DNA of 64,000 nt from Elusimicrobiota bacterium (lineage in GTDB: Bacteria; Elusimicrobiota; Elusimicrobia; F11), in contig JBJXGI010000103.1 in the NCBI GenBank assembly GCA_046153645.1, positions 1-64,000 on the forward strand, read 5' to 3'. The translations under genes were made by a program, and so were the position numbers. The notes below the pieces were generated by a model that saw nothing but the letters and a program-made list of their open reading frames with translations, searched no databases and had not been told where the DNA came from. How positions within the stretch are numbered: the first letter of the stretch is position 1; each line of letters opens with the position of its first letter. This document shows, one piece after another, positions 5,587 to 57,556 of the stretch.

Positions 5587-6204
5587 ATGGCCCGAAAAAA
5601 TAAATTATCCTCTAAAAATAACAACTCCGAAAAGTCCTACACCATAGGAGAGTTGGCCAGTATTTGCCAAGTAACGCCCACAACTATTTATAGGTGGGTT
5701 ATAAGTAAAAAAATACCTTCATTTCAAACGATGGGGAGGCATCACCGAGTATGGGAATCAGATGCTTTTACACTTTTTTCTTCTCTTGATATTCCTCACT
5801 CTCAGTTTAGAGCAAAAAGTATTATTCTAAAAGTTCTTATTGTTGATGATAAACCCTCCATTCGGCGATTGATACGCCGGTTAATTCAATCGAAATTTCC
5901 TAAAGCTCTTATTATCGAAGCTGTTGATGGTTATGAAGCCGGATTTAAAACGCGTGATGAAAAACCACAGCTGGTTATTTTGGATTTAAATCTTCCAAAA
6001 ATTGACGGTGTCAAGGTCTGTCAAATGATTAAAGAGAGTAAAGATCTCCTCCAAACCAAAGTGTTAGCCGTTACCGGAGTGGCGCCTGAAAGATCTCAAA
6101 AGATGGTGTTAAAAGCAGGGGCCGACGCCTTTCTTGCAAAACCTTTTGATAATGAAGATTTTATTTCCAAGGTACAGATGCTGTTGGTAGATTTTTTAAA
6201 CTAG
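5587..6204 (+). CDS. Excisionase/MerR-like HTH plus receiver domain regulator
   Basis: YTIGELASICQVTPTTIYRW...GRHHR HTH; VLIVDD...LVILDLNLP...AKPF receiver. Confidence 0.88.
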   Translation: MARKNKLSSKNNNSEKSYTIGELASICQVTPTTIYRWVISKKIPSFQTMGRHHRVWESDAFTLFSSLDIPHSQFRAKSIILKVLIVDDKPSIRRLIRRLIQSKFPKALIIEAVDGYEAGFKTRDEKPQLVILDLNLPKIDGVKVCQMIKESKDLLQTKVLAVTGVAPERSQKMVLKAGADAFLAKPFDNEDFISKVQMLLVDFLN

Positions 6205-6448
6205 CTATATTTTGAGTTTCTTTTATATTTTTTAGCCATACTGATAATTTTCCAATTCTTTCACTCACTTTCCTAAAGTTTTCTAAGTGTATTTTTCCGT
6301 CCGGTGTCGGAGCTATTTCTTTTTCTAATATTTGAATTCCGAGAAACATGGCGGACTGAATATTGTTTAAATCGTGACATATTGTTCCCACTAATTTTTC
6401 CAAATCAGCTAGCTGAAAAGAGAATTGTTTATTCTTGAGTTTTTTCAT
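6161..6448 (-). CDS. Stand-alone HisKA-like (H-box only) protein
   Basis: LVGTICHDLNNIQSAM H-box, no ATPase domain; probable start ATG 6448; 3' end overlaps the convergent gene by 44 nt. Confidence 0.55.
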   Translation of the reverse strand: MKKLKNKQFSFQLADLEKLVGTICHDLNNIQSAMFLGIQILEKEIAPTPDGKIHLENFRKVSERIGKLSVWLKNIKETQNIASLKNLPTASVPWK

Positions 6449-7421
6449 TTGGATTTTTTTTCGGTGGAGGATATTCATCAACCCGTCTATCAATAAAGTA
6501 GGCGGATTTTTCTTGTCGTTTAGCGACATATTTTACCTGAGCTGCGATCGTTGAAATTTCACCAATATTTTTTAATATTCTCACTTTATTTGTTACGACA
6601 CCGATGGCAAGCGATATAAGAGGGAATGAATTGAGAACCCCTTTTCTATCATGAATAGAAATGTGGCCAGCTTTAAAATCATCTTCATCATAAAATGAAG
6701 ACAGAAGGTCATCAAATCGGTTTATTAGTTTTTCACAAATAGGTGCGGCATCTTCTTCTCCAATAACAACAATAAAATCATCGCCACCGATATGGCCTAA
6801 CATTCGGTCATTTCCAGCGCAGCATGAGATGATGGCTTCGGTTGTTTGAAGGAGAACCTTATCTCCTCGAAGAAAGCCATAATAATCATTGTAAGCTTTA
6901 AAGTGACTGATATCGATGTATAAAATGGAAAAAAGTTTTTTCGATTCAAGTCGGCGAATAATTTCTCTTTCAATGAGGCCATTGCCAGGAAGGCGGCTTA
7001 GTGGATTGGCGTTCAGGGTCATCTCACTCCGCCGGATGGCTGTTTCGGTGCGAGCCAGTAATTCTTCCATATGGAATGGTTTTTCTAAATAATCGTCGCC
7101 GCCGCTTCTAAGTCCTTTAACAATATCATTTGGGGTATCCATCCCACTAAGGAAAATAACTGGGATATGTCGCAATCTGACATCCGATTTAATTTGTTCA
7201 CAAAGCCATAATCCTGAACGACCTGGAAGAATAACATCGAGCAGAATAAGATCACACCAATTGTTATTAATAATAGAGATTGCTTCAGTCGTATTTTTTG
7301 CGAGTTCCACTTCATAGGTGGAAGTGAGTACTCTTTTTATCGCAAAAGAGAACTCTTCGTGATCTTCTACCACTAACACTCTTGATCGGCGATTGGTCAT
7401 TGGAATATTCCTGTTGCTCAA
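6429..7421 (-). CDS. Receiver-GGDEF (GGDDF variant) diguanylate-cyclase-family protein
   Basis: REC (LILLDVILP), then ANPLSRLPGN, DISHFKAYNDYYGF, HIGGDDF. Confidence 0.9.
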   Translation of the reverse strand: MSNRNIPMTNRRSRVLVVEDHEEFSFAIKRVLTSTYEVELAKNTTEAISIINNNWCDLILLDVILPGRSGLWLCEQIKSDVRLRHIPVIFLSGMDTPNDIVKGLRSGGDDYLEKPFHMEELLARTETAIRRSEMTLNANPLSRLPGNGLIEREIIRRLESKKLFSILYIDISHFKAYNDYYGFLRGDKVLLQTTEAIISCCAGNDRMLGHIGGDDFIVVIGEEDAAPICEKLINRFDDLLSSFYDEDDFKAGHISIHDRKGVLNSFPLISLAIGVVTNKVRILKNIGEISTIAAQVKYVAKRQEKSAYFIDRRVDEYPPPKKNPNEKTQE

Positions 7422-8260
7422 ACCATGAGTCTCGGGAAAGATAAAACGAGAACGGGTTTGCTCCCGACTGTTTTTACAATAAACACTTTAAAAATAATGA
7501 TATCACCGAGTGCGTTGATATCAGCTGTATATTTAACGTCATGGTCATCACTGATAAGTTGTTTTAATGTTTCCAAAAATTTCTGAGGAGGGGCTAAGTT
7601 AATTCCGTGAGATCGAATTTGTAAGAGCGCGGAGTCATTTAAGTGACTTATTTTCCCTCCGACCATTTTTTCAAAAGCGTGGTTTGAATAAAGAATCTCC
7701 CAATTTTCATTTAAGATAATAATAGGAATGGCCAGTGAACCGGCGCCTAAACTAATAAATTGGCGAGCGCCTTCTTTTAAATCTCCTTCCCACAATACAT
7801 TTATCTTCCCATCGGGGGTTAGTTGTATATTAACGTCTTCGCCCTCCTTGGTTTGGGCAAAAGGAAGAAGGGGCACTGTTTTTGAATTATCCTGATGTAA
7901 TTTTTTTCGGACATCGGTTAAAATTTTCACTAACTGATGGAGATCCAATGGTTTTTTAAGGTAACTAAAGGCACCGTTTTTTAAAAGAAACTGAGCCGTT
8001 TCATTATCACCATATCCTGTTAAGACAATAACTTCCGTTTCCGGGTGATGGGTTTTCACGGCTGATAAAACCCCTCGGCCGTCAATATTTGGCATCTTAA
8101 GATCAGTGATAATGACTTCGGGACGTTCTCGTTCAAATACTTCTAATCCTTCTTTCCCATCACAAGCTTGAAAGGCGATGAATTTTTCTCTTTCCACAAT
8201 TCGTGTTATTACTTTCCGAACCGGTTCAAAATCATCAATGATTAATATCTTTTCCATCAT
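7418..8260 (-). CDS. Response regulator with C-terminal PAS-like region
   Basis: ILIIDD, ITDLKMP, LTGYG, KKP; C-terminal PIIILNENWEILYSNHAF. Confidence 0.85.
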   Translation of the reverse strand: MMEKILIIDDFEPVRKVITRIVEREKFIAFQACDGKEGLEVFERERPEVIITDLKMPNIDGRGVLSAVKTHHPETEVIVLTGYGDNETAQFLLKNGAFSYLKKPLDLHQLVKILTDVRKKLHQDNSKTVPLLPFAQTKEGEDVNIQLTPDGKINVLWEGDLKEGARQFISLGAGSLAIPIIILNENWEILYSNHAFEKMVGGKISHLNDSALLQIRSHGINLAPPQKFLETLKQLISDDHDVKYTADINALGDIIIFKVFIVKTVGSKPVLVLSFPRLMV

Positions 8261-8261
8261 G

Positions 8262-9470
8262 TTAAGCCGCCTTTTTCAAGATCAATGATTCGGTGAGAGT
8301 GAGAGGTAAAATAATAGAGAAACTGGTCCCATGGTTTAAGGAAGATTCAAACTCAATTTTTCCACCCAATTCTTCAACAATTTCTTTTGAAATGGCCAAT
8401 CCTAGTCCTGTCCCATGATCACGATCCTTGGTTGTAAATAACGGAAGGAAAATTTTTTCTTTAATAGAATCCGGGATACCGGTACCATTGTCTTTTATTG
8501 TGATCATCACAGCCGGTGTTTGATTGTCTAGAACTGTTTCTTGTGTTGATAAAACAATCGATCGGTTAGAAACTTCTGATGAAGATAAAGCGTCTCTTGC
8601 ATTTGAAAGTAAGTTCATGACGACTTGTTGAATACCAACAGGGCGACTGGTTATTTGAGGCAAGTTTTCACTTAACTTCAGAGACAATTCAATGTTATGT
8701 TTGATGAATTGATTTTCAATGAAAGTAATGGTTGTTTGAAGTAACCCATTGAGATCAAAACTTTCAGGCGCCTCATTTTCATCTCCACGAGAAAAAGATC
8801 GCATATTGCGAACGATCTTAACGATAAGATCCATTTGACCGAGCATCTCCTCTAAGTAGGTTTTCATTTCTTTCGAATTAAATTCTTTTTTTTCATCTAT
8901 TTGCATTATGAGTTCTTGGCAATTAAGAATCATGGATCCTAAGGGTTGATTGATTTCATGAACCAATCCGCCAGAGAGTTCTCCGACAGTCGCCATTTTT
9001 CGAAGATGAAAAAGCTCTTTTTTCATCAAAGTAATTTCTTCCGCTTTGGATTGGACAAGTTGATTTAAAGATTTGTTTTCTAATTTTTGATTATCTATCT
9101 CTAATTTTTTTGAAATAGCTTTATCGATAGATTTTCTGAGCTGGATGGCGCTGAATGGTTTAATCAGGAAATCAGCGGCGCCAGCTTTTAAACTTCGAAT
9201 AATAAAATCGCGAGCTGGGTTCCCGGTCATGACAATGGGAGAAAAATTCTCATCCATCTCTTTCATCTTTTCAATGGCGTTGAGTCCGTTCATCCCAGGG
9301 AGGAGAACATCGATGAGAACCAGTTCTGGTTTCTTTTCTTTAAAAATCTCTAAGGCTTGTTTTCCCTGAGTCGCCAAAAAAGGACTAAATTTCCATCGTC
9401 TTAAAATAGTGTCTAATGATTTTAAGATAGCCGGATTGTCATCAACGACTAAAACATTTTCTACAGGCAT
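8262..9470 (-). CDS. Receiver-histidine kinase hybrid
   Basis: REC; GLVHEINQPL H-box; NLLSNARDA, DNGTG, GTGLGL; ends KKAA. Confidence 0.93.
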   Translation of the reverse strand: MPVENVLVVDDNPAILKSLDTILRRWKFSPFLATQGKQALEIFKEKKPELVLIDVLLPGMNGLNAIEKMKEMDENFSPIVMTGNPARDFIIRSLKAGAADFLIKPFSAIQLRKSIDKAISKKLEIDNQKLENKSLNQLVQSKAEEITLMKKELFHLRKMATVGELSGGLVHEINQPLGSMILNCQELIMQIDEKKEFNSKEMKTYLEEMLGQMDLIVKIVRNMRSFSRGDENEAPESFDLNGLLQTTITFIENQFIKHNIELSLKLSENLPQITSRPVGIQQVVMNLLSNARDALSSSEVSNRSIVLSTQETVLDNQTPAVMITIKDNGTGIPDSIKEKIFLPLFTTKDRDHGTGLGLAISKEIVEELGGKIEFESSLNHGTSFSIILPLTLTESLILKKAA

Positions 9471-9509: not shown

Positions 9510-9537
9510 TTATCGGTATTGCAGCTGAGATGCTTGA
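9510..9537 (-). promoter_or_regulatory. sigma28 (FliA)-type promoter
   Basis: Minus strand TCAAG-N15-ACCGATAA upstream of the 9470 operon. Confidence 0.7.
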
Positions 9538-9556: not shown

Positions 9557-9572
9557 TGGCACGAACTTTGCT
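9557..9572 (+). promoter_or_regulatory. sigma54 -24/-12 promoter
   Basis: TGGCACGAACTTTGCT, consensus match, intergenic. Confidence 0.8.
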
Positions 9573-11525: not shown

Positions 11526-11552
11526 TCAAGATTTCAGATAGATAACCGATAA
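11526..11552 (+). promoter_or_regulatory. sigma28-type promoter
   Basis: TCAAG-N14-ACCGATAA, 10 nt before ATG 11563. Confidence 0.7.
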
Positions 11553-11562
11553 CACTTAAAGA

Positions 11563-14265
11563 ATGAAAAAGATATTTGATGCGACCAAAACAATTTTTCT
11601 CCGAGTAAAAATACTATTACCCTTATTAACTCTTTCGATCCTGGTCGGGTTTATTGATTTTAGAATAGGTGTGATATTAAGTGTTTTTTCATTTTTGGCT
11701 TATGGATTTGTGAAGTTGGCCATTGTTCGGCCTATTCAATTGTTACATCAAGCGATAGATGGAAGAGAGGGGAAAAAAAATATTAAGGCCCTCCTGACGC
11801 CGGGTCGTGATGAGATTGAACAGTTGGCTGAAACCATTAATAATATTTTAAACCAATTATCCGAAAGTGAAGAGAATTTTCGCCAAATGGCAGAAAGTAT
11901 TCATGCGGTGTTTTGGATGACAACTCCAGACCAAAAGAACATTGTTTATATTAGTCCCGCTTTTGAGAACATGTGGGGCATAAAATTAGAGGAGTTATTG
12001 AAAGATCCTAGTTTGAGGTTTAAAGCCATCCTTTCTGATGATCGCGAAATCGTTGAATCGTGTTATCGAGAAAACGCGCGAAAGAACTTCGATGTGGAGT
12101 ATCGAATCCAACGGCCTGATGGAAAAATATTATGGATTCATGATCGAGGTTATCCTGTTAAAGATGCCAAAGGCGAAATTATCAGAATCACGGGAATGTC
12201 TACGGATATTTCCGAACGTAAAAAATCTGAAGACGCGCTTATTCGAAGTGAAGCTCAAAATCAACAACTTATTAAAGATTTAGAAGTTGCCAATACCAAG
12301 GCACTGCAAGCAGCCAGGGTCAAAGGTGATTTTTTGGCCAACATGAGTCATGAAATCAGAACACCGATGAATGGGGTGATGGGAACCCTTGAATTATTAA
12401 GCGGAACAGATTTAAATCAAGAACAAAGAGAATATGTAACAACAGCAACAAAATCTGCCGAGTTTTTATTAGAAATAATTAATGATGTCTTAGATTTCTC
12501 AAAGATTGAGGCTGGAAAGCTAAACATCAACCCAACCATTATGAATTTAATGGTCGTTATTGAAGATGTGGTTGAAATGTTAGCCATGAAGGCTGAAGAG
12601 AAAGGGATTGAATTGGCTTTTCGATATGCACGAAACGTCCCTGTTAATATTATTGCTGATCCCGCCCGCATCAAACAGATTTTGGTTAATTTGATTGGTA
12701 ATGCCATTAAATTTACAGAAACAGGGCATGTGTTTATTAATGTTGAAGTCGACCAAATTAACCAGGGAAAAGGAACTTTTTTGATTTCTGTTGAAGATAC
12801 GGGGATAGGAATTCCTGAAGACCGTGTAGAGAGTATTTTTGAAACATTTACACAGGTTGACTCTTCAACTTCGAGAAAGTTTGGTGGCACCGGTCTTGGT
12901 TTAACAATTTGCCGGCAAATGGCCAAAATGATTAACGGAAGTATTGAAGTAAAAAGCAAGTTGGGAGTGGGCTCCACTTTTACATTTAGTGTTACTGTTC
13001 CCTTGGCTAAAGAGAGTGTTACGTTTGCAGAATCTCGATCTCTAAAAAATTTAAATATTGCCGTTGTTGATGATAATGAGGGGAATCAACGCATTTTGCA
13101 TGAATTAATTTCCGCCCAAGGAAATCGATGTGAAATATTTTCTTCAGGGCAACAGGCTTTTGGTGCCATTCAAAGATCTTGGAATGGCGGGGACCCGATT
13201 CACATGGTATTGATAGATAAAAAACTTCCTTTAATGGATGGGGAGTTACTGGGTCGAAAGATAAAGTCTGACCCTCAATTGTCTCAGATAGAGCTCATCA
13301 TGATGGTGACGATGGGAGATTTAGCCAACACGCAAAAATTAAAACTTTCCGGATTTTCTGGGCATATTACTAAGCCCATACGTCCATCTCAGATTATAAA
13401 TATGTTAAGTCAAATTTGGGAAAAACAAGGAAGTATAAGGACTACCATGGAACCAATCCCCGTAAATCATGAAAAGAACATTGATAAAAACAAAGATCAA
13501 ATTAACAGTGCCCAGGTTTTATTTCATTCAGATGTGTTATTGGTAGAGGATACAGTTATTAACCAACAAGTTGCTGTTCGTATGCTTGAGAAATTAGGGT
13601 GTCGTGTTGAAGTGGCGAATAATGGAGTGGAAGCAGTTAAAAAAATAAAAGATTACCCTTATTCTTTGGTTTTTATGGACTGTCAAATGCCTGAAATGGA
13701 TGGTTATCAGGCGACACAAGAAATTCGAAAATTTGAACGGGATGCAGGATGTCATCTTCCCATCATTGCTATGACGGCCCATGCCTTAGAAGGAGATCGT
13801 GAAAAGTGCTTGGAATTTGGCATGGACGATTATATTTCCAAACCAATTAAGTCTGCTATTTTTATCAAGGTACTAACTCAATGGAATATTCACTTAGATC
13901 TTGAAGTCATTGAGGGATTGGCCGAACTTAATGGAAACGATAATCAATTTCGAGAAAAATTAATGCACGATTTTCTTTCAGATACAGCCAAACGGATTAA
14001 TTCCATAAAACAAAGTGTTATCGACAAAAATTTTTCTCAAGTTCGATCCCTTGCTCATTCTATTCGTGGGTCAGCCGGTACAATGGGAGCCCGACGAATT
14101 TATAATTTATGTTCATGGATCGAATTAGCGTCTGAAGTCGAAGGATGGGATCAAAAAGCGTTAAAAGTGGTCACAGGGTTAGAAAATGAATTTTTAAGTG
14201 TAGAAAAAACTTTTAAATCATTTGAAGAAGGTAAGTTTATTCCTAAATCAGAGCGAGCAGCATAG
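11563..14265 (+). CDS. Unorthodox hybrid kinase TM-HAMP-PAS-HisKA-HATPase-REC-REC-Hpt
   Basis: FLANMSHEIRTPMNG; FGGTGLGL; two receivers (VLID, VFMDCQMP); Hpt LAHSIRGSAGTMGA; ends ERAA. Confidence 0.95.
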   Translation: MKKIFDATKTIFLRVKILLPLLTLSILVGFIDFRIGVILSVFSFLAYGFVKLAIVRPIQLLHQAIDGREGKKNIKALLTPGRDEIEQLAETINNILNQLSESEENFRQMAESIHAVFWMTTPDQKNIVYISPAFENMWGIKLEELLKDPSLRFKAILSDDREIVESCYRENARKNFDVEYRIQRPDGKILWIHDRGYPVKDAKGEIIRITGMSTDISERKKSEDALIRSEAQNQQLIKDLEVANTKALQAARVKGDFLANMSHEIRTPMNGVMGTLELLSGTDLNQEQREYVTTATKSAEFLLEIINDVLDFSKIEAGKLNINPTIMNLMVVIEDVVEMLAMKAEEKGIELAFRYARNVPVNIIADPARIKQILVNLIGNAIKFTETGHVFINVEVDQINQGKGTFLISVEDTGIGIPEDRVESIFETFTQVDSSTSRKFGGTGLGLTICRQMAKMINGSIEVKSKLGVGSTFTFSVTVPLAKESVTFAESRSLKNLNIAVVDDNEGNQRILHELISAQGNRCEIFSSGQQAFGAIQRSWNGGDPIHMVLIDKKLPLMDGELLGRKIKSDPQLSQIELIMMVTMGDLANTQKLKLSGFSGHITKPIRPSQIINMLSQIWEKQGSIRTTMEPIPVNHEKNIDKNKDQINSAQVLFHSDVLLVEDTVINQQVAVRMLEKLGCRVEVANNGVEAVKKIKDYPYSLVFMDCQMPEMDGYQATQEIRKFERDAGCHLPIIAMTAHALEGDREKCLEFGMDDYISKPIKSAIFIKVLTQWNIHLDLEVIEGLAELNGNDNQFREKLMHDFLSDTAKRINSIKQSVIDKNFSQVRSLAHSIRGSAGTMGARRIYNLCSWIELASEVEGWDQKALKVVTGLENEFLSVEKTFKSFEEGKFIPKSERAA

Positions 14266-14275
14266 AGGACATTCG

Positions 14276-17105: not shown

Positions 17106-17471
17106 TTAAAATAACACTTCTTTAGTTTTTGTAAGGTTGCCTAAGTTTTCTCTGTTTATTTCTTCTAATTTTATTGCCAATTTTTTTTGTTTTGCCAGAA
17201 GGGCGTTGCATTCGGCGATTTGTATTTTTTCATTTATATTTTGAGGGTTTGTGAATAAGGTTTTGTGTTTTTTCCAAAAAAAATATTTTTTTAATTCGTT
17301 GATTTTAATTCTTTGAGTAAGAATGTTTTTTTGAATCAGCAATTCAGGTAATTCAGTAAATTGTTCTTTGTTAATGAGTGATTCTTCTCTCATTGAGAGT
17401 AAAATCAATTTTTTTAATTTCTTAATCTCATCTTTTAATGTCAAATTAAAAAAAAGTAAATCAGTATTCAT
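17106..17471 (-). CDS. Small helical protein, FlgN/FliT-chaperone-like
   Basis: LKDEIKKLKKLILLSMREESLINKEQFTELPELLIQKNIL...LEEINRENL pattern resembles FlgN; 11 nt downstream of glgP. Confidence 0.5.
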   Translation of the reverse strand: MNTDLLFFNLTLKDEIKKLKKLILLSMREESLINKEQFTELPELLIQKNILTQRIKINELKKYFFWKKHKTLFTNPQNINEKIQIAECNALLAKQKKLAIKLEEINRENLGNLTKTKEVLF

Positions 17472-45008: not shown

Positions 45009-45025
45009 AAATGAGGATTTTTTAA

Positions 45026-45328: not shown

Positions 45329-45381
45329 TGGCTGGACCTGAGAGCGAATCTTTCAAAAGAAACGCTTGACGTAGGAAGCCA
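45329..45381 (+). promoter_or_regulatory. Structured leader motif upstream of fliF
   Basis: TGGCT-GGA-CCT...AGG-A-AGCCA; same architecture as 53540-53565. Confidence 0.55.
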
Positions 45382-45432
45382 ATGTTTCCAGATGATGAAA
45401 GGAAACCTTCCCGATAAGAGGGAGAACGAACA

Positions 45433-47022: not shown

Positions 47023-47034
47023 GAGAGGTCAGTT

Positions 47035-48063: not shown

Positions 48064-48065
48064 AT

Positions 48066-48377
48066 GTGAGTTTAGATATGAATATAAAAAAAGAAGAAGA
48101 ATTAACCGGTCGGATCATGAAAAAGGTTCAAATTATGGAGGTTCCTTATGTTTTTGGAGAGAAGGAACAACAAAAGTGTTTATGTTCTCCCCACTCTTTA
48201 GAATCGTTTAAACAACTTGAAGAGAAAATTAAAACGCTTGAATTAAAAATTTATGACCTTGAACACAGTCGTTCCATAACAATCCATAAAACCAAAGAAA
48301 AATTTTCACCGGAGCTCATCCGAAAAATAAAACCGTTGATCAAAAGACAGAGAAGAAAAGCTTTGGAGTGGAGATAG
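48066..48377 (+). CDS. Small protein resembling the N-terminus of the adjacent FliH
   Basis: GRIMKKVQIMEVPYVFG versus ARIVKKTEITSDPYKVG; followed by a coiled coil. Confidence 0.5.
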   Translation: MSLDMNIKKEEELTGRIMKKVQIMEVPYVFGEKEQQKCLCSPHSLESFKQLEEKIKTLELKIYDLEHSRSITIHKTKEKFSPELIRKIKPLIKRQRRKALEWR

Positions 48378-49006
48378 ATTTTGTGTTTGCTCGAATTGTC
48401 AAAAAAACTGAAATTACTTCAGATCCATATAAAGTGGGGCATGTTGAAGTCAAAAAAAAAGGACTTCTTTTACAGGTTCTAGAAAAGCATCGTCCAAATG
48501 AAAATCCCCATGAATATGTTAAAGCCATGGAAGAAAAAATTATTGATTTAGGTTTGAGATATCTGGAAACAAAAGCCAGTCAAGCCATTGAGTTTGAAAA
48601 AAATCAAATGATCATTCAGTTACAAGAACAAATGGAAAGTGCTTTAGATGAAATGAATGAGGGTTTGGTTGATCTGGTTATGGATATAGCTGAAAAATTT
48701 TGCCGAAAAAAAGCATCAGAAGATAAATCAATTATTCAGGCATGGGTCAAAGAAGCGTTGTCTCGTTTGGGTCAAGAAAAATCAGTGACAATGCGATTAA
48801 ATCCTTCTGAGGCCGAAATTATTCAAACCATGAAACAAGAAATTCTTGAGTCCCGAGAAGGATTGAAAGAATTAATAATTCAGTTTGATCCTGAAATGGA
48901 ACAAGGAGGGGTGGTTGTGACGGGTGAAACGATGGTTGTTGATTCAAGTGTCAAAACGCGCCTCAAAGAAATCAGGCACAATTTAAAAGGTCAGCATGAA
49001 AGTTAA
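48368..49006 (+). CDS. fliH: Export ATPase regulator FliH
   Basis: LVDLVMDIAEK, MRLNPSE, DPEMEQGGVVV; precedes fliI. Confidence 0.85.
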   Translation: MEIDFVFARIVKKTEITSDPYKVGHVEVKKKGLLLQVLEKHRPNENPHEYVKAMEEKIIDLGLRYLETKASQAIEFEKNQMIIQLQEQMESALDEMNEGLVDLVMDIAEKFCRKKASEDKSIIQAWVKEALSRLGQEKSVTMRLNPSEAEIIQTMKQEILESREGLKELIIQFDPEMEQGGVVVTGETMVVDSSVKTRLKEIRHNLKGQHES

Positions 49007-50315
49007 TTTAGAAAAGTTAAGAACACAATTACAAAAAGTTGACCCTGTTCGGTCTTTTGGTCGAGTCAAACGTGTTATTGGTGGAATGATTGAGGGTAAA
49101 GGATTGAATTTGTCTATCGGAGATCTTTGTGAGATACACTCACAAAGTGAAGATCGATTTATTCTAGCCGAAGCCGTTGGCTTTAGAGACGATAATATTT
49201 TTCTCATGCCTTTAGGAGAATTACGTGGAATTAGTCCTGGTTGCTTATTTGAAAAATCTAAGGGAATGGCCAAAGTCTCTGTTGGCCCACAACTATTGGG
49301 TCGTGTCCTCAATGAATTCGGTCAGCCTATCGATAATAAAGGTCCCCTTGTCTGCGATGAGCGTCGCCCCTTTTATAGATTTTCATCCAATCCGCTAAAA
49401 CGGATTCCCATTCGAGAGCCACTTTTGACAGGTGTTCGAGCTATCGATGGTGTTCTTACTTGTGGAAAGGGGCAACGTTTAGGAATTTTTGCGGGGAGCG
49501 GGGTTGGAAAAAGTGTTTTGATGGGAATGTTAGCGAGGAATACATCTGCTGATGTGAATGTGATTGCCATGATTGGAGAAAGAGGGCGAGAAATTCGGGA
49601 ATTTATTGAAAACAATTTAAAAGAAGAAGGCCTTAAAAGATCGGTCATTGTCGCGGTTCCTTCTGATCGGCCTCCGATGGCGCGTATTTATGCGGCATTG
49701 GCCGCTACTTCCATTTCGGAGTATTTCTGTGAACAGGGAAAAGATGTCATGTTAATGATGGATTCTTCCACCCGTGTTGCGATGGCCTTAAGAGAAGTGG
49801 GACTGGGAATGGGAGAAGCACCCACGTCGAGGGGATACACCCCATCTGTGTTTACGTTTTTGCCAAAACTATTGGAACGCTCAGGAAATTTTGAAACAGG
49901 CAGCATCACCGCTTTTTATACTGTTCTTGTAGAAGGAGATGATATGGACGAGCCAGTTGCTGATACCATGCGTTCTATTCTTGATGGTCATATCGTGTTA
50001 TCAAGAAAAATCGCTTCGCAGAATCATTTTCCTGCCATTGATATTTTACAGAGTATTAGTCGTTGTATGACGGACGTGACATCGATAGCTCACAGAAAAT
50101 CAGCCAATCGTTTAAAAGAGTTGTTGGCCATTTATCATGACACAGAAGACTTAATTAAAGTTGGGGCTTATGTGAAGGGCAACCAAAGTAAAGTTGATGA
50201 AGCGATTTCAAAAATCGACCGGATCAACTCTTTTTTAATGCAAGGGATTGAAGAAAAAATGGAATTTAAAAATTGCTTACAACAAATGGCGGACCTTTCA
50301 AATGAAAAAATTTAA
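48996..50315 (+). CDS. fliI: Flagellar export ATPase FliI
   Basis: GIFAGSGVGKS, IGERGRE, GSITAFYTVLVEGDD. Confidence 0.97.
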   Translation: MKVNLEKLRTQLQKVDPVRSFGRVKRVIGGMIEGKGLNLSIGDLCEIHSQSEDRFILAEAVGFRDDNIFLMPLGELRGISPGCLFEKSKGMAKVSVGPQLLGRVLNEFGQPIDNKGPLVCDERRPFYRFSSNPLKRIPIREPLLTGVRAIDGVLTCGKGQRLGIFAGSGVGKSVLMGMLARNTSADVNVIAMIGERGREIREFIENNLKEEGLKRSVIVAVPSDRPPMARIYAALAATSISEYFCEQGKDVMLMMDSSTRVAMALREVGLGMGEAPTSRGYTPSVFTFLPKLLERSGNFETGSITAFYTVLVEGDDMDEPVADTMRSILDGHIVLSRKIASQNHFPAIDILQSISRCMTDVTSIAHRKSANRLKELLAIYHDTEDLIKVGAYVKGNQSKVDEAISKIDRINSFLMQGIEEKMEFKNCLQQMADLSNEKI

Positions 50316-50766
50316 CTTTCGTCTTGATCGATTTCTCAAGATTAAACTGGCATTGGAAAAAAATCAATCCTTTGCTATCCAACGCATAGAAAATCATGTG
50401 AATCAAAAGAAACAAGAACAGGTAACACTTGAGAAAATATTAGAGGATTATCAAAGAATTGAACAATCTCAATCTAACAGCGATATTAACCTTCCTAAAA
50501 TTGTCGCCATGATGGCTTATATGGAATTAATAGACACGCGTGTTTCTTCAAAAAAAGAAGAAATAAATAAACTTCAAGCAGGTCTTATTTCTGAAAGAAA
50601 AAAATTACTTTATTTAATGCGTGAGAGAAGAGCTTTAGAAAGTTTAAAAGATAATTTTTTCCTCACCTATAAAAAAGAAATTTCCAAAGAATTTCAAAAA
50701 AGACTGGATGATTCCTGTAAAAACAAATCACAGGAAGAAGAGCAGAGGTTAAAAACCAATGGATAG
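50302..50766 (+). CDS. fliJ: Export chaperone FliJ
   Basis: MKKFNFRLDRFLKIK; ERRALESLK; EFQKRLDD. Confidence 0.88.
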   Translation: MKKFNFRLDRFLKIKLALEKNQSFAIQRIENHVNQKKQEQVTLEKILEDYQRIEQSQSNSDINLPKIVAMMAYMELIDTRVSSKKEEINKLQAGLISERKKLLYLMRERRALESLKDNFFLTYKKEISKEFQKRLDDSCKNKSQEEEQRLKTNG

Positions 50767-51490
50767 TTTAAAGAGTTTAGCGCCGAGGGTTCTTTTGTGG
50801 ATTTTATGTGTTTGTGTTCCTGCTTCTGTGGGTCTAAGGTTATTTGATCCTCCGAAAATGCAGGTCATCATTCCAACGGTCAATCCTCTATTGGAAGTCA
50901 ACCTTGAAGAAGAAATTCATTCAGAAGAAAGTGAACCAGAAACAATGACTCCTGGAAAAGCGCTTAGCATGAAAATTGCTGAAGAGAAAAGTGTAGCGGA
51001 ACAGTTAAAAGATAAGGGGTTATCCCCTGAGATTGATAAGTTGGTGGCCTATCTTTCTCAATCGCACGCGGAACAAATGGTGACACTAAAAAAGTATTTA
51101 GAGCAAGCGGATATTTTAAGGAAACAATTAGACGCACAAAATAAAAAATGGGAAGAAAATAAAGGAAAGATTGAAATGATCTTGGCAGTTCAAAAACAAC
51201 ATGACGAGCAGTTTAAAACACTTCTCCAAAAAATTAATGAAACCGATTCCAAAGTGGGAGAAAAAGTGAAAGGTGATCAAGCTAATATGGATAAGATCAC
51301 AAAAATGTATTCAACCATGCCCGCAGAAAATGTGGCCAAAATAACTGAAGATATGGACATGGATTCTGTTGTCGAAATATTTTCTCAAATTAAAGACAAG
51401 GATTTGGTCAAAATTATTCAGGCACTCCCGCCTAAGCGAGCTGCATCGATCACTTTAAAAATGGCGGACTTTTCAAGGAAAAAGAAATGA
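50759..51490 (+). CDS. MotE/FlbB/YlxF-like protein (TM, coiled coil, MgtE_N-like repeat)
   Basis: KMYSTMPAENVAKI...IIQALPPKRAASIT; after fliJ. Confidence 0.8.
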   Translation: MDSLKSLAPRVLLWILCVCVPASVGLRLFDPPKMQVIIPTVNPLLEVNLEEEIHSEESEPETMTPGKALSMKIAEEKSVAEQLKDKGLSPEIDKLVAYLSQSHAEQMVTLKKYLEQADILRKQLDAQNKKWEENKGKIEMILAVQKQHDEQFKTLLQKINETDSKVGEKVKGDQANMDKITKMYSTMPAENVAKITEDMDMDSVVEIFSQIKDKDLVKIIQALPPKRAASITLKMADFSRKKK

Positions 51491-52839
51491 AATTAGAAAA
51501 TTCAGAAATCATTTCAATATCACCACAGATTTTGGCACCCTCTAAAAATTTTGATAATTCCTTAAATAAAAATGAGAAGTTTGAAACATCTTTTAAAACT
51601 GTTGTTGAAAAACAAGAAATGAAACCTTCCAATGCTCAAGCCGAAACATCAGAAAGACCTCGTGGACTTAAAAATTCACCCAGAGCGGAGAAAGATAATG
51701 AATCTCATGAGCCCGCGACTGATGATCAATTAACCGTTTCAATAATTCCAGTGATTACTCCGATGATTATTCCAGTCCAAGAGGTTTCAGTTGATCTTAT
51801 TGTGGCGGCGACTCTGCTTTTAGAAATAACCCCCGTTCAGAATGTCATTGGTGAAGAGAAAGACGCCCTAAATTTAAATACTTCAACACTCCTCATGATG
51901 AACATCAATAATGAAGCTGAGACTGTTCATTTGCAACAAAAAGTAGCTGAAGGTAATCAAGTCGGTCTTGCGCTTGTTTCTGAACAGAAAAATCCGGTGA
52001 TGGAGAGTATAAATAAATTATCCGCTAAGACAGATTCTGAAAAAGTTTCTTTAGAAACAACGAATGTGGATGAGATTGTGATTCCACAAAAAACCTCGTC
52101 TAGCCAAGCGGTTTTGGATCAGTTAAGAATCTTTGAACCTGAAACCGAAAATAGCTTGCCCAGTAATAAAAAAATAAAAAACGAAGAACAAGGTGAAATC
52201 GAACCTTCAGTTGAGTTTCAAAATGTCGACATGAAAGTTGAGGGGGCCACTTTAAGAGAGTTTAATAAAACTGATTTTGATTTTTCATTTCTGAATCAAA
52301 ATAAAAATACTTCTTCTGAAATTTCACATTTTCTCTTTCAAACTCCCAATCCCATAAAAGAGAATTCGGTTTTTTCGTCCCCTGCTTCAGGTGAAGTTAT
52401 GATTAAAAGTCATCTGCCAACTGAACAGAAAGTTGTAGATCAAATTATTCAAAAGTTTTCTGTTATTCAACAAGCAGGACAATCTCAAGCGCAAATTGAG
52501 TTAGAACCCAAAGAACTAGGAAAGTTAAAGATGGTTTTAACAATGGATCAAGACTCCGTGATCGTAAAATTCAATGTCGAAAGTCAAAGAGTTAAAGAAA
52601 TTGTTCAGGCTCATTTACCGCAATTGAAAGATTCTTTGTTAGAGCGGGGGTTTACCGTTGAAAGATTTGATGTCGCGATGATGGCCAGTGGTCACAACAT
52701 GGATCACTCAGGTGATAAACATCAAGGGCCAAAGATGCCAATCCCCTACCGAAAGTTTGATGTTAATGAATTTGTTAACAATGAAATGATGAGCGGAGTT
52801 GTTAATTTTGAAAATCGCAGAGTAAATGTTTTTGCTTAA
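51487..52839 (+). CDS. fliK: Hook-length control protein FliK
   Basis: Low-complexity N-terminus; IELEPKELGKL...LPQLKDSLLERG. Confidence 0.92.
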   Translation: MKLENSEIISISPQILAPSKNFDNSLNKNEKFETSFKTVVEKQEMKPSNAQAETSERPRGLKNSPRAEKDNESHEPATDDQLTVSIIPVITPMIIPVQEVSVDLIVAATLLLEITPVQNVIGEEKDALNLNTSTLLMMNINNEAETVHLQQKVAEGNQVGLALVSEQKNPVMESINKLSAKTDSEKVSLETTNVDEIVIPQKTSSSQAVLDQLRIFEPETENSLPSNKKIKNEEQGEIEPSVEFQNVDMKVEGATLREFNKTDFDFSFLNQNKNTSSEISHFLFQTPNPIKENSVFSSPASGEVMIKSHLPTEQKVVDQIIQKFSVIQQAGQSQAQIELEPKELGKLKMVLTMDQDSVIVKFNVESQRVKEIVQAHLPQLKDSLLERGFTVERFDVAMMASGHNMDHSGDKHQGPKMPIPYRKFDVNEFVNNEMMSGVVNFENRRVNVFA

Positions 52840-52857
52840 TTTTAATAGGAGGAAAAT

Positions 52858-53250
52858 ATGATTGATTCACTTAATGGGTTTACACCCTCAATACCAGATG
52901 CTCCCAACCCAGGCAGAGAGCTTGATAAGGATGCTTTTTTAAAATTGTTGACTGCCCAAATTCAACATCAAGATCCTCTCAACCCCACTGATCAAAATGA
53001 AATGTTTGGCACATTGTCGCAAATGACTCAAGTTGAGCAGATCACCAATTTGAATAGCAATGTTTCGAGCCTTCTTCATACCAATCAGTTGAATTTAATT
53101 GGGAAAGAAGTAGCTGCTTTAGATGATGAAGGAAAAGCCATTCAAGGAATCGTTCAAGAGATTGCCTTTGTGGAAGGAGATTCTTTTATGTTGATTGATG
53201 GGAAAACTGTTTCAATCAAAAACCTCTTAAGTGTGACAATTCCAAAATGA
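52858..53250 (+). CDS. flgD: Hook-capping protein FlgD
   Basis: LDKDAFLKLLTAQIQHQDPLNP. Confidence 0.95.
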   Translation: MIDSLNGFTPSIPDAPNPGRELDKDAFLKLLTAQIQHQDPLNPTDQNEMFGTLSQMTQVEQITNLNSNVSSLLHTNQLNLIGKEVAALDDEGKAIQGIVQEIAFVEGDSFMLIDGKTVSIKNLLSVTIPK

Positions 53251-53531
53251 TAGACGGAATTTTACCATCATTAAGTGGTGCCATACGATTTACACAGCAC
53301 GCGCAACAAAGATTAAAGTCTGATCAAGTAAATCTAACAGTATCCGAAATAAATCGCATTCAAGGAGGAATGGATAAAGCGGCAGAAAAAGGAGCCAAAG
53401 AATCACTTTTGTTAATGGAAGATAAAGCTTTTATCGTCAATGCCAAAGATCGTGTAGTGATTACGTCTATTAATCGAGAGCGTCTGAGAGAAAATGTTTT
53501 TACGAATATTGACAGTGCAGTAATAATTTAA
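53247..53531 (+). CDS. Flagellar operon protein (TIGR02530-like)
   Basis: IRFTQHAQQRL...KAAEKGAKESLLL...NVFTNIDSAVI, between flgD and flgE. Confidence 0.9.
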   Translation: MIDGILPSLSGAIRFTQHAQQRLKSDQVNLTVSEINRIQGGMDKAAEKGAKESLLLMEDKAFIVNAKDRVVITSINRERLRENVFTNIDSAVII

Positions 53532-53539
53532 AAAATAAA

Positions 53540-53565
53540 AGGGCCGGACCCATCTGGGAGGCCCT
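53540..53565 (+). promoter_or_regulatory. Structured leader motif upstream of flgE
   Basis: AGGGCC-GGA-CCC-ATCT-GGG-A-GGCCCT. Confidence 0.6.
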
Positions 53566-53586
53566 CCAATACAGGAGGAAGTTCAT

Positions 53587-55611
53587 ATGATGCCAGCACT
53601 ATTTTCAGGAGTTTCAGGTCTTAAGAACCATCAATTCCGTTTAAATGTTATCGGTAATAATCTGTCAAACGTTAATACCATCGGTTATAAATACAACCGG
53701 GTTACGTTTAGTGATCTTGTATATCAAAATGTCCGTGACGCTTCCGCTGCGCAAAATGGTTTGGGTGGAACCAATCCTGTTCAAATGGGCTTGGGAGCGT
53801 TGGTTAATACTGTTGACATGATTAATTCTCAGGGGAATTTAGAGTCAACTGGCAAATCAACTGATTTGGCCATTCAGGGAAATGGTTATTTTGTTTTAGG
53901 TGATGATTCCAATCGTTATTACACCCGCGCTGGAAACATGGCCATTGGTGTTGACGGCACACTTTTTAATCCTTCCAATGGTTTAAAATTTATGGGTTGG
54001 AAAGCTTCTAATGGCGCCATTGATACTTCTAATCAAGTTGAAGATGTGAGTATCCCCATCGGGCAAGCGTTAGCCGCTCAACCTACTTCAAATCTTGTGA
54101 TGGCAGGGAATTTAGATGCGACAGGAACTATTTCTCTTGGAACAATCACTCAAACCCCTGTTTTATTGGCAAAAGCAACGGGTAGTGATTTAGCCACACT
54201 TGCTAAAAATGGTCGTGGGATAAGTCTTGGTTTAAACGTTGGCGATGTTATTAACATTACAGGAAATGTGGGAGGAACTGCGATAACAGGTCAAACATTA
54301 ACCGTGACAGCTTTAACGAGTGTTGATGATATTGCCGCCGCTTTACAAGCAGCTCTTCAAAGTGTTCCAGATGGTGACGCAAGTGAAACCGCCACAGTTC
54401 AGGCCGATGGTTCAATTCAAGTGGTATCGGATGGATCCAATGACATTACAGCACTTCGAATGGGAATTTCCGGGAATAGTGTTTTAAATGGCGCTTTTGC
54501 CTTTCCTTCAACAATTGTTGGCGGTGGCAGCACTGGAAATTCTGATACTTTAATGGCAGCAGCTGATGGGACCGATGCACTTGTTGATTTGTTTGATGCG
54601 ACAGGAAACAGTATTGGTTTGGTTGCAGGGGATGATGTCACTCTTATTAGCGCCATTTCAAAAGGTTCATTGATAACCAATGTCAATATTCTCAGTGATA
54701 TTACCAACGGAACAACCTATGAAACCTACAAAGATGCATTGAAATCAGCGCTCTTCACTAGTTTCCCCTTATTTGGGGAGGATATGACGGTTGAATCGGA
54801 TGGATCTTTAAAATTAACGGGTGCCGTTGGAGCTAGCAATGCTGTGACAGGGCTTGAACTGGGTGCCGGCCCAACTCCTGGGGGCGATGTCCGAGATACG
54901 TTCGGAGCTTCTCAAGTATTTGTTCAATCTCAAGCCGCTGTTGACGCCACTTCATTTCGTACAACAGGACAGGTTTTTGACTCTTTAGGAAACACTCATA
55001 CCGTAAATATTACTTTCACTAAAACAGTTAACAATACTTGGGATTGGTCCGCGAGTACGGGGGGAGCGACAGTTGGTTCAGGGGTATTAAATTTCTCAAG
55101 TACTGGAGAAATTTTAAACTCAACTGGTGCGCTAACGCTCAATTTGAATAACGGAGCAACAACCCCGTTGGTTATTTCGATTGATTTTGGTACCGCTACA
55201 CAATTCGGTGGAAACTCTTCTCTTGTTGTGACAAGTCAAAATGGAAACGAATCAGCAACTTTAAATAATTTCTCTGTTGGTCAAGGGGGAGATATTACCG
55301 GGATATTTTCTAATGGAAAAAATATTTTATTGGGGCAATTATCCGTCGCTACTTTCCAAAATCCAACCGGTCTTATTCGAGAAGGAAGAAATTTACTTTC
55401 TGAATCACCCAACTCAGGAGTGGCGTTTGTTGGAGTCCCAGGGGTGGGTGGGAGAGGAACATTTGTCGCTGGAACATTAGAAATGTCTAACGTGGACGTG
55501 GCGCGTGAATTTACTGACATGATCATCACTCAGCGTGGGTTTCAAGCCAATGCGAGAGTGATTTCAACGTCGAATGAGATGTTAGAAGAGCTGGTCAACC
55601 TGAAAAGGTAA
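53587..55611 (+). CDS. flgE: Hook protein FlgE (long form)
   Basis: LFSGVSGL...GNNLSNVNTIGYK; FDSLGNTH; LEMSNVD...QRGFQANARVI. Confidence 0.96.
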   Translation: MMPALFSGVSGLKNHQFRLNVIGNNLSNVNTIGYKYNRVTFSDLVYQNVRDASAAQNGLGGTNPVQMGLGALVNTVDMINSQGNLESTGKSTDLAIQGNGYFVLGDDSNRYYTRAGNMAIGVDGTLFNPSNGLKFMGWKASNGAIDTSNQVEDVSIPIGQALAAQPTSNLVMAGNLDATGTISLGTITQTPVLLAKATGSDLATLAKNGRGISLGLNVGDVINITGNVGGTAITGQTLTVTALTSVDDIAAALQAALQSVPDGDASETATVQADGSIQVVSDGSNDITALRMGISGNSVLNGAFAFPSTIVGGGSTGNSDTLMAAADGTDALVDLFDATGNSIGLVAGDDVTLISAISKGSLITNVNILSDITNGTTYETYKDALKSALFTSFPLFGEDMTVESDGSLKLTGAVGASNAVTGLELGAGPTPGGDVRDTFGASQVFVQSQAAVDATSFRTTGQVFDSLGNTHTVNITFTKTVNNTWDWSASTGGATVGSGVLNFSSTGEILNSTGALTLNLNNGATTPLVISIDFGTATQFGGNSSLVVTSQNGNESATLNNFSVGQGGDITGIFSNGKNILLGQLSVATFQNPTGLIREGRNLLSESPNSGVAFVGVPGVGGRGTFVAGTLEMSNVDVAREFTDMIITQRGFQANARVISTSNEMLEELVNLKR

Positions 55612-55617
55612 TAGTCC

Positions 55618-55650
55618 ACCCAAAGGTGGGGAATTCCCCCACCTTCGGGT
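55618..55650 (+). terminator. Strong hairpin after flgE
   Basis: ACCC-A-AAGGTGGGG...CCCCACCTT-C-GGGT, no clear U tract. Confidence 0.55.
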
Positions 55651-55682
55651 TGATTAAATTTAAATAAGGAAAAGAAACTTTT

Positions 55683-56264
55683 ATGTCGTTACCAGAAACA
55701 ATAAAAAAAGTTGGAGTAGAAATTGTGGTTTTTTCCCTCTCAGGAGTTATTAGTGTCGTGGGGTCTTATGTGTTGATTAAACGCGTGTTGCCTCAGGCTT
55801 GGTTTCAGGGTGAAACTGTTGCCGTGGTGGCGGCTCCAGCAGACGCACATGCCGCAGAAGGCCAGAAGGCTGCCGAGAGCCATAAAGAGGGAACAAAACC
55901 AAAAGAAGATCATGGAAAAGAAAAACCTAAAGGACATGGCGAAGGAAAAGAAGAGAAGGAGGAAGGCGTTAATGTCCCATTGAAATCTGTCATTGTTAAT
56001 TTGGCAGATACCAATGTTCGTCGGTTTGGAAAAGTTTCTTTGTCTTTACAAGTGAAAGATCCCAAAGTTGTGGAAGACTTGAAAAAAGTGGATCCGCAAA
56101 TATATGACACTTTGATTAAAGTGTTGAGCCATTTCAAATATGAAGAGATTAGCTCTCTCGATGGAAAAGAACTGTTCAAAGAAGAAGTGAAGAATAGAAT
56201 TAATGTCATTTTAAAAGATGATGTTGTTACAAGTGTATTTATCACCGAATTGATTGTGCAATAG
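55683..56264 (+). CDS. fliL: Basal-body-associated protein FliL
   Basis: N-terminal TM; IVNLAD; GKELFKEEV; VFITELIVQ. Confidence 0.92.
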   Translation: MSLPETIKKVGVEIVVFSLSGVISVVGSYVLIKRVLPQAWFQGETVAVVAAPADAHAAEGQKAAESHKEGTKPKEDHGKEKPKGHGEGKEEKEEGVNVPLKSVIVNLADTNVRRFGKVSLSLQVKDPKVVEDLKKVDPQIYDTLIKVLSHFKYEEISSLDGKELFKEEVKNRINVILKDDVVTSVFITELIVQ

Positions 56265-56275
56265 GGAAAATAGTT

Positions 56276-57151
56276 ATGGTCGCCACTTTTGATGCTCGTC
56301 AAACAATTCTCTCCAAAAAGAAAAAAGAATTTCTTAAAAAGATATATATCGAATTTTCTTCTGCTTTAGAAAAAACACTCTTGAGTTATATTTCACTTCC
56401 TATTCATGTCTCTATAAAGGACATTAATTATTTTTCATATGAAAATTATCAAAAAGGGACCGAGGGTTCATTTTTGTGGAATTTGTTTGCCATTGAGCCA
56501 GTGGGAACTTTAGGCTTATTAAAAATACAAAACAATTTGGTGTTGGTGGCTTTAGACCGCATTTTAGGTGGGCCGGGCAAATTAAGCGCGGAAAAAAAAG
56601 AACAACTTTCATTGATCGAATTAAAAATGTCTGAAGCCTTGGTTAATCAGATATTAAACCGGTTGAATGCGGTATTAGAAACCTATGGCGAATGTAGTTT
56701 TCATGCTCAAGCAATGGCACAAAATAACAAAGACTTAAAATTTCTTTCGGCGGATGACCCTGTGATTGTGGTGAGCTTTGAAACAAGTTTTGGAGAATTA
56801 CAAGGAAAAATGGACGTTTGTTTCCCGGTTACTTTTCTTGATCCTATTTTGGCCACCGTTGATAAACAAGATCAACAATCATTTGGGAATTTGAGCGACC
56901 CAAAAATTGCGCATATTGTTAAAGAAAAAATGGGTCCGTTGCTCGTCCCTGTCTGTGCTTATTTAGGTGAATTGAAACTTCCTCTAGAAGAGTTGTTGGC
57001 TCTAGAGCCGGGCCATGTGATTTGTTTGGGGCCTATTCACAAAGATTTGGTTGTAAAAGTGGCCAATGTTCCAGTTTTTTTAGGTTCTCCTGGTGTATCA
57101 AATGAGAATTTGGCTGTTCAAGTGCGCGTGGAAGTCCCATGCAAAAAGTAA
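56276..57151 (+). CDS. fliM: Switch protein FliM, N-terminally truncated
   Basis: DRILGGPG, LSLIE, MDVCFP, C-terminal SpoA domain; no LSQxEID segment. Confidence 0.88.
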   Translation: MVATFDARQTILSKKKKEFLKKIYIEFSSALEKTLLSYISLPIHVSIKDINYFSYENYQKGTEGSFLWNLFAIEPVGTLGLLKIQNNLVLVALDRILGGPGKLSAEKKEQLSLIELKMSEALVNQILNRLNAVLETYGECSFHAQAMAQNNKDLKFLSADDPVIVVSFETSFGELQGKMDVCFPVTFLDPILATVDKQDQQSFGNLSDPKIAHIVKEKMGPLLVPVCAYLGELKLPLEELLALEPGHVICLGPIHKDLVVKVANVPVFLGSPGVSNENLAVQVRVEVPCKK

Positions 57152-57163
57152 GGAGTAAGTTTT

Positions 57164-57556
57164 ATGTCCAATGACTTAACGCCTCCAGAAGAACAGGGGC
57201 AAAATGAAATGGTGGTTGGTCAACCATCAGGTATCGATAATATAACAACGGTTCAAAAAGCTGAGTTACCTCCTTTGGTTTCAAATCCCAAGGCGCCTGT
57301 TAATTTAAAAATTGCGCCACTTATGGATGTGAATTTAAATGTGAGTGTTTTGTTGGGGAAAACCATGATGACTTTGGGAGATCTTCTGAAACTGGGATCT
57401 GGATCTGTGATTGAACTAAGTCGTCCCACAGGAGAACCTGTTGACATTCTTGTGAATGATCGTTTTTTTGCCAGAGGAGAAATCGTGGTTGTTGAAGAAT
57501 CTTTTGGCGTAAGAATTTTAGAAGTGGCTGACAATCAGAGAGCGGAGGCAGCGTGA
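57164..57556 (+). CDS. fliN: Switch protein FliN
   Basis: LMDVNLNVSVLLG...GSVIEL...ARGEIVVVEESFGVRI; ends AEAA. Confidence 0.95.
   Translation: MSNDLTPPEEQGQNEMVVGQPSGIDNITTVQKAELPPLVSNPKAPVNLKIAPLMDVNLNVSVLLGKTMMTLGDLLKLGSGSVIELSRPTGEPVDILVNDRFFARGEIVVVEESFGVRILEVADNQRAEAA

Follow-up and report, generated by a model that had tools for sequence, protein, structure and literature searches.

The first 64,000 nucleotides of contig C58 of an Elusimicrobiota genome (G000), hereafter the window, carry a full flagellar gene set with signalling and metabolic genes interspersed. The genome spans 2.63 Mb in 105 contigs and is 99.7% complete and 1.7% contaminated. With a probability of about 0.62, the window is read here as a vertically inherited flagellar supercluster under a sigma54-then-sigma28 cascade, which would have lost its block of chemotaxis (che) genes and kept the neighbouring signalling. 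Relatives are labelled by genome (G015, G028 and so on), family (f1, f5, f10) and locus (L024 and so on). According to the accessible part of an Elusimicrobiota survey (bioRxiv 10.1101/2022.07.08.499144), few genomes have a full flagellar set, and homologues of che, type IV pilus, motAB, flbD and fliG genes occur without flagella; that part does not treat sigma28 regulons, FliM truncation, coupling of glgP or terminal Ala-Ala. The window offers a sequence-level regulatory map of flagellar motility for an uncultured lineage with few flagellated genomes.

Genes of the flagellar cluster

On the plus strand, flgF-G-A-H-I-J, flgM-N-K-L, fliW, csrA, fliC, flaG, fliD and fliS lie at 20050..33008, motA, motB and a gene for a PilZ-like protein at 33983..36077, and flgB-C, fliE-K, flgD-E, fliL-R, flhB and flhA at 44209..63046. 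The last set includes fliM (56276..57151), whose product is without the N-terminal CheY-binding segment, and fliN (57164..57556), whose product ends in AEAA and whose stop codon overlaps the fliO start. A REC-AAA+ sigma54 activator resembling FleR, FlbD and FlgR is encoded upstream (42981..44204, plus strand). The gene for FliA, the sigma28 factor (63043..63876, plus strand), directly follows flhA (60935-63876 for the pair), and the window contains neither flhF nor flhG; in G148, G333 and G339, flhA is followed by an additional gene. FliM, FliN and FliA are each single-copy in the genome. Convergent on fliA is a second, cluster-linked RpoN-like gene, whose 3' end falls inside the window (63854..64000, minus strand) and which as a whole occupies C58:63854-65041 (L180:358-1542, minus strand).

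Five accessory units are distributed among these genes, each headed by a sigma28-type promoter. The first is on the minus strand, behind a 19.8-bit promoter (9510..9537, -10 at 9517), and encodes a REC-histidine kinase (REC-HK) that ends in LKKAA (8262..9470) and whose G015 orthologue likewise ends in Ala-Ala (AA), a 280-residue REC-domain protein (7418..8260), a REC-GGDEF protein with a GGDDF motif (6429..7421) and a 122-residue open reading frame (ORF) with no Pfam family (6161..6529). The second, on the plus strand, follows a 22.4-bit promoter (11526..11552, -10 at 11545) and comprises a PAS-HK-REC-REC-Hpt hybrid kinase ending in ERAA (11563..14265), a REC-HK with no AA end (14222..15403; the G015 orthologue ends in PAAA) and zwf (15408..16944), whose reading frame is broken in two by a frameshift within a C run (near 15819-15824). 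The third, on the minus strand, holds glgP, for the sole glycogen phosphorylase found, ending in LKKAA (17483..19909), and a gene for a 121-residue helical protein (17106..17471) that is FlgN/FliT-like by predicted structure (TM score 0.81, below the bar for naming) and weakly similar (E=0.13) to a 150-residue protein at the same position in family f10. Its promoter combines a perfect -10 box (19917..19924) with a weak -35, for 8.5 bits in total. The fourth is a gene for an FNR-like FAD/NAD oxidoreductase (33177..33917, minus strand) with a 19.3-bit promoter (33907..33934, -10 at 33914) and a 56% paralogue on C91. The fifth, also on the minus strand, starts from another 22.4-bit promoter (42364..42391, -10 at 42371), joint best in the genome with that of the second unit, and encodes an MshEN-PilB/GspE ATPase-REC fusion ending in GVAA (40118..42331), a 530-residue REC-HK (38529..40121), a FIST sensor that is NosP-like but under the NCBIfam cut-off (37396..38532) and a PAS-HK ending in LFKAA (36091..37389).

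Family searches confirm the REC, HK and Hpt proteins, the REC-GGDEF protein, GlgP and the FAD/NAD oxidoreductase, so that most of the gene content claimed in the original prediction, made from the letters of the window, stands. The exceptions are the frameshifted zwf and the PilZ protein (35556-36077), which is recognised only by Atlas and structure: it has no Pfam or NCBIfam match, scores 0.94 to PilZ clusters in the Atlas and reaches TM scores of 0.65-0.69, with RxxxR present and D/NxSxxG imperfect.

Sigma28-type and sigma54-type promoters

In enteric bacteria, Pseudomonas and Bacillus, late (class 3/4) FliA regulons comprise fliC, motAB, che genes, a PilZ motor brake and cyclic di-GMP (c-di-GMP) enzymes, and the classical sigma28 promoter is close to TAAA-N15-GCCGATAA. 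Compared with these regulons, the cluster shares FliA/FlgM control and a similar promoter; unlike them, it has mostly TCAAG as its -35, no che tier, no FliM peptide, and glgP included. FliA scores 216 bits against a TIGR02479 cut-off of 189.6, and FlgM matches PF04316. Sigma28 promoters stand on the plus strand before flgM (24211..24237, -10 at 24230), fliC (28307..28334, -10 at 28327) and motA-motB-pilZ (33969..33996, -10 at 33989), and the same sites recur in relatives. Together with the accessory promoters they make up eight -10 boxes at unit starts, five before non-flagellar genes, just as the original prediction had counted them.

A sigma28 matrix was trained on 12 flagellar-gene promoters only, 9 from relatives and the 3 just named, and was used to score 836 unit heads genome-wide (16 in the window and 820 elsewhere). 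Scores of at least 17 bits are reached by 7/16 window heads versus 3/820 elsewhere; the window sites take ranks 1, 2 and 4-8, which places seven of the eight sites among the top eight, and the two best, before the MshEN-PilB-REC gene and the hybrid kinase gene, are non-flagellar. With the training sites set aside, the excess is still beyond chance (4/13 versus 3/820, Fisher p=1.2e-6). A perfect -10 within 60 nt is found for only 5/1928 genes elsewhere in the genome. A wider regulon was considered and rejected: two of the three outside heads with at least 17 bits (on C68 and C33) lie inside upstream coding sequence and the third has a poor -10, which also disposes of the apparent site before gnd-zwf on C33. 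The sigma28 regulon thus appears, at the level of predicted promoters, almost confined to the flagellar cluster. Within the window, two further sites were discarded: the ninth, at 17044, is part of a palindromic repeat family and the other, at 29829, of a terminator-like hairpin. Whole-genome counts of the pattern do not separate flagellated from non-flagellated genomes (matches in 16/16).

The -10 boxes at 19917-19924, 33907-33914 and 33989-33996 end exactly 7 nt before the in-frame ATG of glgP, the FNR-like gene and motA, respectively, which suggests leaderless transcripts; in relatives the motA sigma28 sites are 32-44 nt upstream. Relatives have sigma28 sites of a comparable sort upstream of non-flagellar units, among them a REC-CheX-HK-FIST-HK unit in G015 (24.5 bits) and an HK-REC-PilB-REC unit in G194 (20.2 bits). 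Other relatives have such sites before hemerythrin genes (family f10, 13.7-21.6 bits; L024:11791-12366, L142 and L158; G020 and G429) and before a malic enzyme gene (G028, L146, 21.6 bits).

Four sigma54-type sites, which the original prediction had missed, also head units in the window. Those on the plus strand at 9557..9572 (a -24/-12-type site divergent from the promoter of the first accessory unit), 19990..20005 (upstream of flgF, with a counterpart before flgF in G015 and G028) and 42501..42516 (with one mismatch, at the start of the unit that encodes the sigma54 activator and basal-body proteins) face sigma28 sites back to back, in opposite directions, at 9510-9572, 19917-20005 and 42364-42516. 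Sigma54-type sites occur before flgF, flgE or fliF in relatives too, and four relatives have a sigma28 site divergent from flgF that drives other genes. The cluster-linked RpoN-like protein matches the DNA-binding domain model only; its counterparts in five flagellated relatives are ~40% identical, and the other rpoN product, on C20, is 28% identical. The RpoN-like gene, the sigma54 activator and the -24/-12 sites upstream of early genes give the window a sigma54-to-sigma28 layout, from which the cascade and its timing are proposed by analogy with known families.

Chemotaxis genes and FliM

The original prediction had found no che genes in 64 kb, and this now extends to the whole genome. CheW, methyl-accepting chemotaxis proteins (MCP), the CheA dimerisation domain, CheR and CheB have 0 matches in G000, against matches in 6-8 of 14 control genomes, and the CheW, MCP, CheR and CheX of G015 find no match in it as tblastn queries. 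Neither a FliM or FliY with a CheY-binding peptide nor any second FliM/FliY is found in the genome. By these gene and promoter tests, the system is classed as a member of the FliA/FlgM regulon and not as a classical chemotaxis system.

Che genes are present in most flagellated relatives. CheW occurs in 7/8 other flagellated genomes from the FlhA search; of three flagellated genomes found later, two have CheA and one, 85% complete, has no match. G020 is without CheW, MCP, CheA and CheB and keeps an orphan CheR. In G015 a full che block is flanked on one side by the orthologues of the REC-HK and REC genes and on the other by those of the hybrid kinase gene and its REC-HK neighbour. At this place the window has, behind the sigma54 site at 9557..9572, genes for 215- and 442-residue proteins with weak FlgT_N and LipL46 matches (9585-11506), and a homologue of the 215-residue protein adjoins cheR in G028. 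A phosphofructokinase gene is immediately upstream of the che genes in G015. Since che genes lie inside the same cluster in relatives, often behind sigma28 sites (cheA in G028 and G423, 17.7 bits; cheR in G429, 19.3; a che operon in G394, 17.4), the cascade of G000 is best read, from comparison of the loci, as one that lost its che block by deletion from a sigma28 tier that once contained it. The same comparison tells against a programme that stands as an alternative to chemotaxis, as originally proposed, because the same sigma28 regulon in relatives includes cheA-cheW-MCP operons.

The cluster itself is scarce, with FlhA in 0/11 same-family genomes and 9/401 genomes of the phylum. For families f1, f5 and f10 the export-gene tree is compatible with that of RpoB, which fits vertical descent with many losses. 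A related-locus search with FlhA returned only distant Ignavibacteria/Bacteroidota loci, which served as the outgroup, and plasmid tblastn matches were all below 60%. A misbinned contig was rejected, as the tetranucleotide profile of C58 is typical of the genome (14th closest among 57 long contigs). A horizontal island is unsupported given the compatible trees, despite an adjoining integrase and half tRNA: at C58 ~65210-67228 (L180), beyond the cluster, an apparent 5' half of a tRNA is followed by genes for a tyrosine integrase and an excisionase-like HTH protein.

Such scarcity would also be expected of a decaying cluster, one that has lost che, has a broken zwf, and retains its accessory promoters and AA ends as remnants of an ancestral regulon while it moves towards the full flagellar loss seen in the rest of the family. 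The orphan CheR of G020 fits this picture, as does the zwf frameshift, whose site is bridged gap-free by one contig of run X4 (the four runs including X4 are one study, possibly the source of the genome, and thus not independent). However, family matches show the structural, export and motor genes to have open reading frames of full length, two accessory promoters score best in the genome, and an intact zwf paralogue on C33 makes the loss of zwf cheap. Decay is quite improbable.

The truncation of FliM, which the original prediction had rightly noticed, does not mark independence from chemotaxis. The match of FliM to TIGR01397 begins at position 40 of the profile and residue 8 of the protein; the peptide is not recovered with any upstream in-frame start, and the G000 proteome has no LSQxEID-like motif. 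This pattern is found in only 1/11 clusters of flagellated relatives, that of G148, the sole one from another class; for G339, in which no FliM was matched to the window protein, its absence rests on the pattern alone. Of the 10 clusters without the motif, 8 have CheW or CheA, so the truncation is older than and independent of the che loss. It is unusable as evidence of chemotaxis-independence, yet it is a real oddity of the clade, and no earlier report of a clade-wide FliM truncation beside che operons was found in the accessible literature. A FliM lacking the peptide would have a precedent in lateral flagella, but no paper on it was found in the accessible literature. The accessible parts of two papers (PMC4481668, PMC7534056) are silent on it. 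According to the accessible part of a study in E. coli, motors without the FliM segment still bind CheY and switch at ~tenfold higher CheY (PMC7957414). Natural motors that are without the FliM tether and still co-encode che systems bear on how CheY switches motors. In relatives, MshEN-PilB-REC fusions lie in or beside che or kinase operons (L170, G394:C188; L044, G028:C63; L031, G194), and the fusion is a candidate target of che systems whose motor is without the FliM peptide.

Glycogen phosphorylase, Ala-Ala termini and the proposed cascade

The original prediction held that finishing the flagellum switches on a transient dispersal state, fuelled by its own enzymes, erased by ClpXP and replacing chemotaxis. 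The Zwf share of that fuel supply falls away with the broken gene. For GlgP, 24/121 class genomes have this type of glgP, and a loose sigma28 -10 lies upstream of it in 7/7 genomes with FlhA and 0/17 without, on a background of 139/1928 genes (7%). By matrix, four of the seven sites score 16-19.5 bits, that of G000 8.5 and two only 0.5. Six of the seven flagellated genomes are close kin, and the tree places the G000 GlgP in a clade of its own with those of two non-flagellated genomes (support 100/100); there are thus at most two independent cases of coupling. The FlgN/FliT-like ORF after glgP, together with the sigma28 sites divergent from flgF in four relatives, raises the idea that glgP may have been inserted behind a pre-existing promoter. 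No published report of FliA control of glgP was found among titles and abstract starts, and the coupling appears new within the accessible literature. The accessible part of PMC10597470 gives Chlamydia a two-gene sigma28 regulon, without glycogen genes. The coupling, seen in two glgP lineages, provides a testable candidate for a direct transcriptional link between flagellum completion and glycogen mobilisation.

The five AA-ending accessory proteins of the original prediction (8262-9470, 11563-14265, GlgP, 36091-37389 and 40118-42331) are borne out, and FliN ends likewise. Among accessory proteins AA ends are found in 5/15, versus 46/2030 outside the window (p=2e-5, post hoc); relative to signalling proteins elsewhere in the genome (3/45), the excess is modest (p=0.02-0.03). 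Genome-wide, AA ends reach 2.4% versus 0.44% expected from composition, about 5-fold. AA could arise from the DNA alone where a stop and a start codon overlap and a ribosome-binding site is present, which could account for the PilB-REC fusion and FliN, each with a 4-nt overlap between its stop and the following start. However, the ends draw on all four Ala codons, they are not confined to overlapping genes, and they are as frequent in last or orphan genes (28/841) as in genes with 4-nt overlaps (9/273), which together argue for selection at the protein level. Translational coupling is largely refuted genome-wide as the origin, a very unlikely explanation overall, and may still apply to two of the six cases in the window.

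Caulobacter CtrA is a known ClpXP substrate with a C-terminal AA. The genome encodes ClpX, two ClpP proteins and a transfer-messenger RNA (tmRNA) tag, ADQELALAA, so the machinery that the original prediction relied on is in place, and the AA ends probably serve ClpXP as signals, making some of these proteins shorter-lived. ClpX, ClpP, the tmRNA tag and the ~5-fold AA enrichment are shared with ClpXP/ssrA degrons as described in the accessible part of PMC10862746; by contrast, the upstream residues here are mostly K/R-rich (KKAA, ERAA), not Leu-rich, and no adaptor or timing signal was found. A degron is plausible and lineage-restricted. In the matching block of G015, 10/34 proteins end in AA, including CheW, MCP and CheA, versus 13/377 in 400 kb plus flanks on the same contig; outside the cluster, 3/4 G015 signalling proteins do so. 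No earlier report of such an AA-rich signalling block was found in the accessible literature. AA ends also mark 4 of the first 5 proteins of a C81 unit with motA-motB; two motA-motB loci lie outside the flagellar cluster (C81:3772-12563 and C40:7424-11290). Many giant proteins (1300-4400 residues) on C15, C17, C18, C29, C33, C39, C71, C78, C79, C80 and C103 end in AA (for example VLVAA and SLIAA), as do several small antitoxin-like proteins on these contigs.

In favour of the dispersal state, the first gene of 4/5 accessory units ends in AA, the ClpXP machinery and a tmRNA tag ending in LAA are present, glgP is coupled in 7/7 flagellated genomes by the loose pattern, and che-less G020 retains sigma28-type sites before glgP and hemerythrin genes. 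Yet the AA-richest block belongs to che-positive G015, so AA does not replace chemotaxis; che-less G020 has AA on 0/9 signalling proteins; zwf has its frameshift; FliA lacks an AA end; and the expected enrichment of AA beyond the window is not seen, with 0/8 among outside heads of at least 12 bits. Nor are the ends conserved gene by gene: GlgP ends in AA in 1/22 genomes with a complete end (2/24 are cut by contig ends). The ends are probably a lineage habit on signalling and other proteins, not established as a dedicated reset, and the dispersal state as a whole is unlikely. Of the findings by which it was said to fall, none appeared: no full che system, no second FliM/FliY, no background frequency of AA, no unconserved promoters.

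In the preferred reading of a sigma54-then-sigma28 supercluster that lost its che block, the cluster-linked RpoN and the REC-AAA+ activator would drive the rod, basal-body and export genes. FliA, freed from FlgM upon hook completion, would then drive the filament, the stator and the five accessory units. The chemosensory operon of the sigma28 tier would have been lost, and the phosphorelays, REC-GGDEF protein, PilZ-like protein and MshEN-PilB-REC fusion kept. As no receptors were found, classical steering would be impossible, and the cell most likely swims without receptor guidance; phosphorelay and c-di-GMP signals would most likely switch the motor on and off or move the cell from swimming to sticking. 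GlgP could mobilise glycogen to supply carbon once the flagellum is finished, and ClpXP may limit the lifetime of several components.

Several points weigh against this reading. A genome in 105 contigs could conceivably have missed a che contig, and the enrichment p-values are post hoc. The glgP site, despite its perfect -10, has a poor -35 and ranks 37/836; the 11.7 bits of the G015 site upstream of the REC-HK orthologue do not rise above background (46 matches of at least 11 bits in 400 kb); and the FNR gene of G194 has no site of at least 11 bits. The branching order of f1, f5 and f10 is weak in the export-gene tree (support 42-63). AA enrichment is absent from the signalling sets of seven other relatives (3/118 signalling or che genes versus 9/274 others, counted in fetched regions, not whole genomes), and terminal AA was necessary, not sufficient, for ClpXP in an E. 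coli screen, according to the accessible part of PMC10862746.

A combination of these elements is conceivable, though tentative. The motor of the class would ancestrally have lost the FliM peptide but kept sigma28 chemosensory operons, acting on a non-canonical site or a PilB-REC target; sigma28 would twice have recruited glgP to fuel swimming; and here, with che gone, a self-limiting swimming phase would be controlled by nothing but a ClpXP-tagged phosphorelay/c-di-GMP tier.

Legionella already provides a precedent for a motile phase under sigma28 without che genes. The accessible part of PMC5655016 describes L. pneumophila as likewise flagellated and che-less, with sigma54-then-sigma28 regulators (RpoN/FleQ/FleSR to FliA) and with non-flagellar FliA targets that include a GGDEF/EAL-PAS protein; FliA also takes part in the switch to the transmissive form, according to the accessible part of PMC13227487. 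Unlike in L. pneumophila, the accessory tier here is gathered in one 64-kb cluster with multi-step phosphorelays, MshEN-PilB-REC, FIST and GlgP, che was apparently lost from within that cluster, and one accessory protein in three has an AA end. Palindromic intergenic repeats also occur in the window, at 16976-17085 and 33086-33180, with related copies on ~15 and 5 other contigs, respectively.

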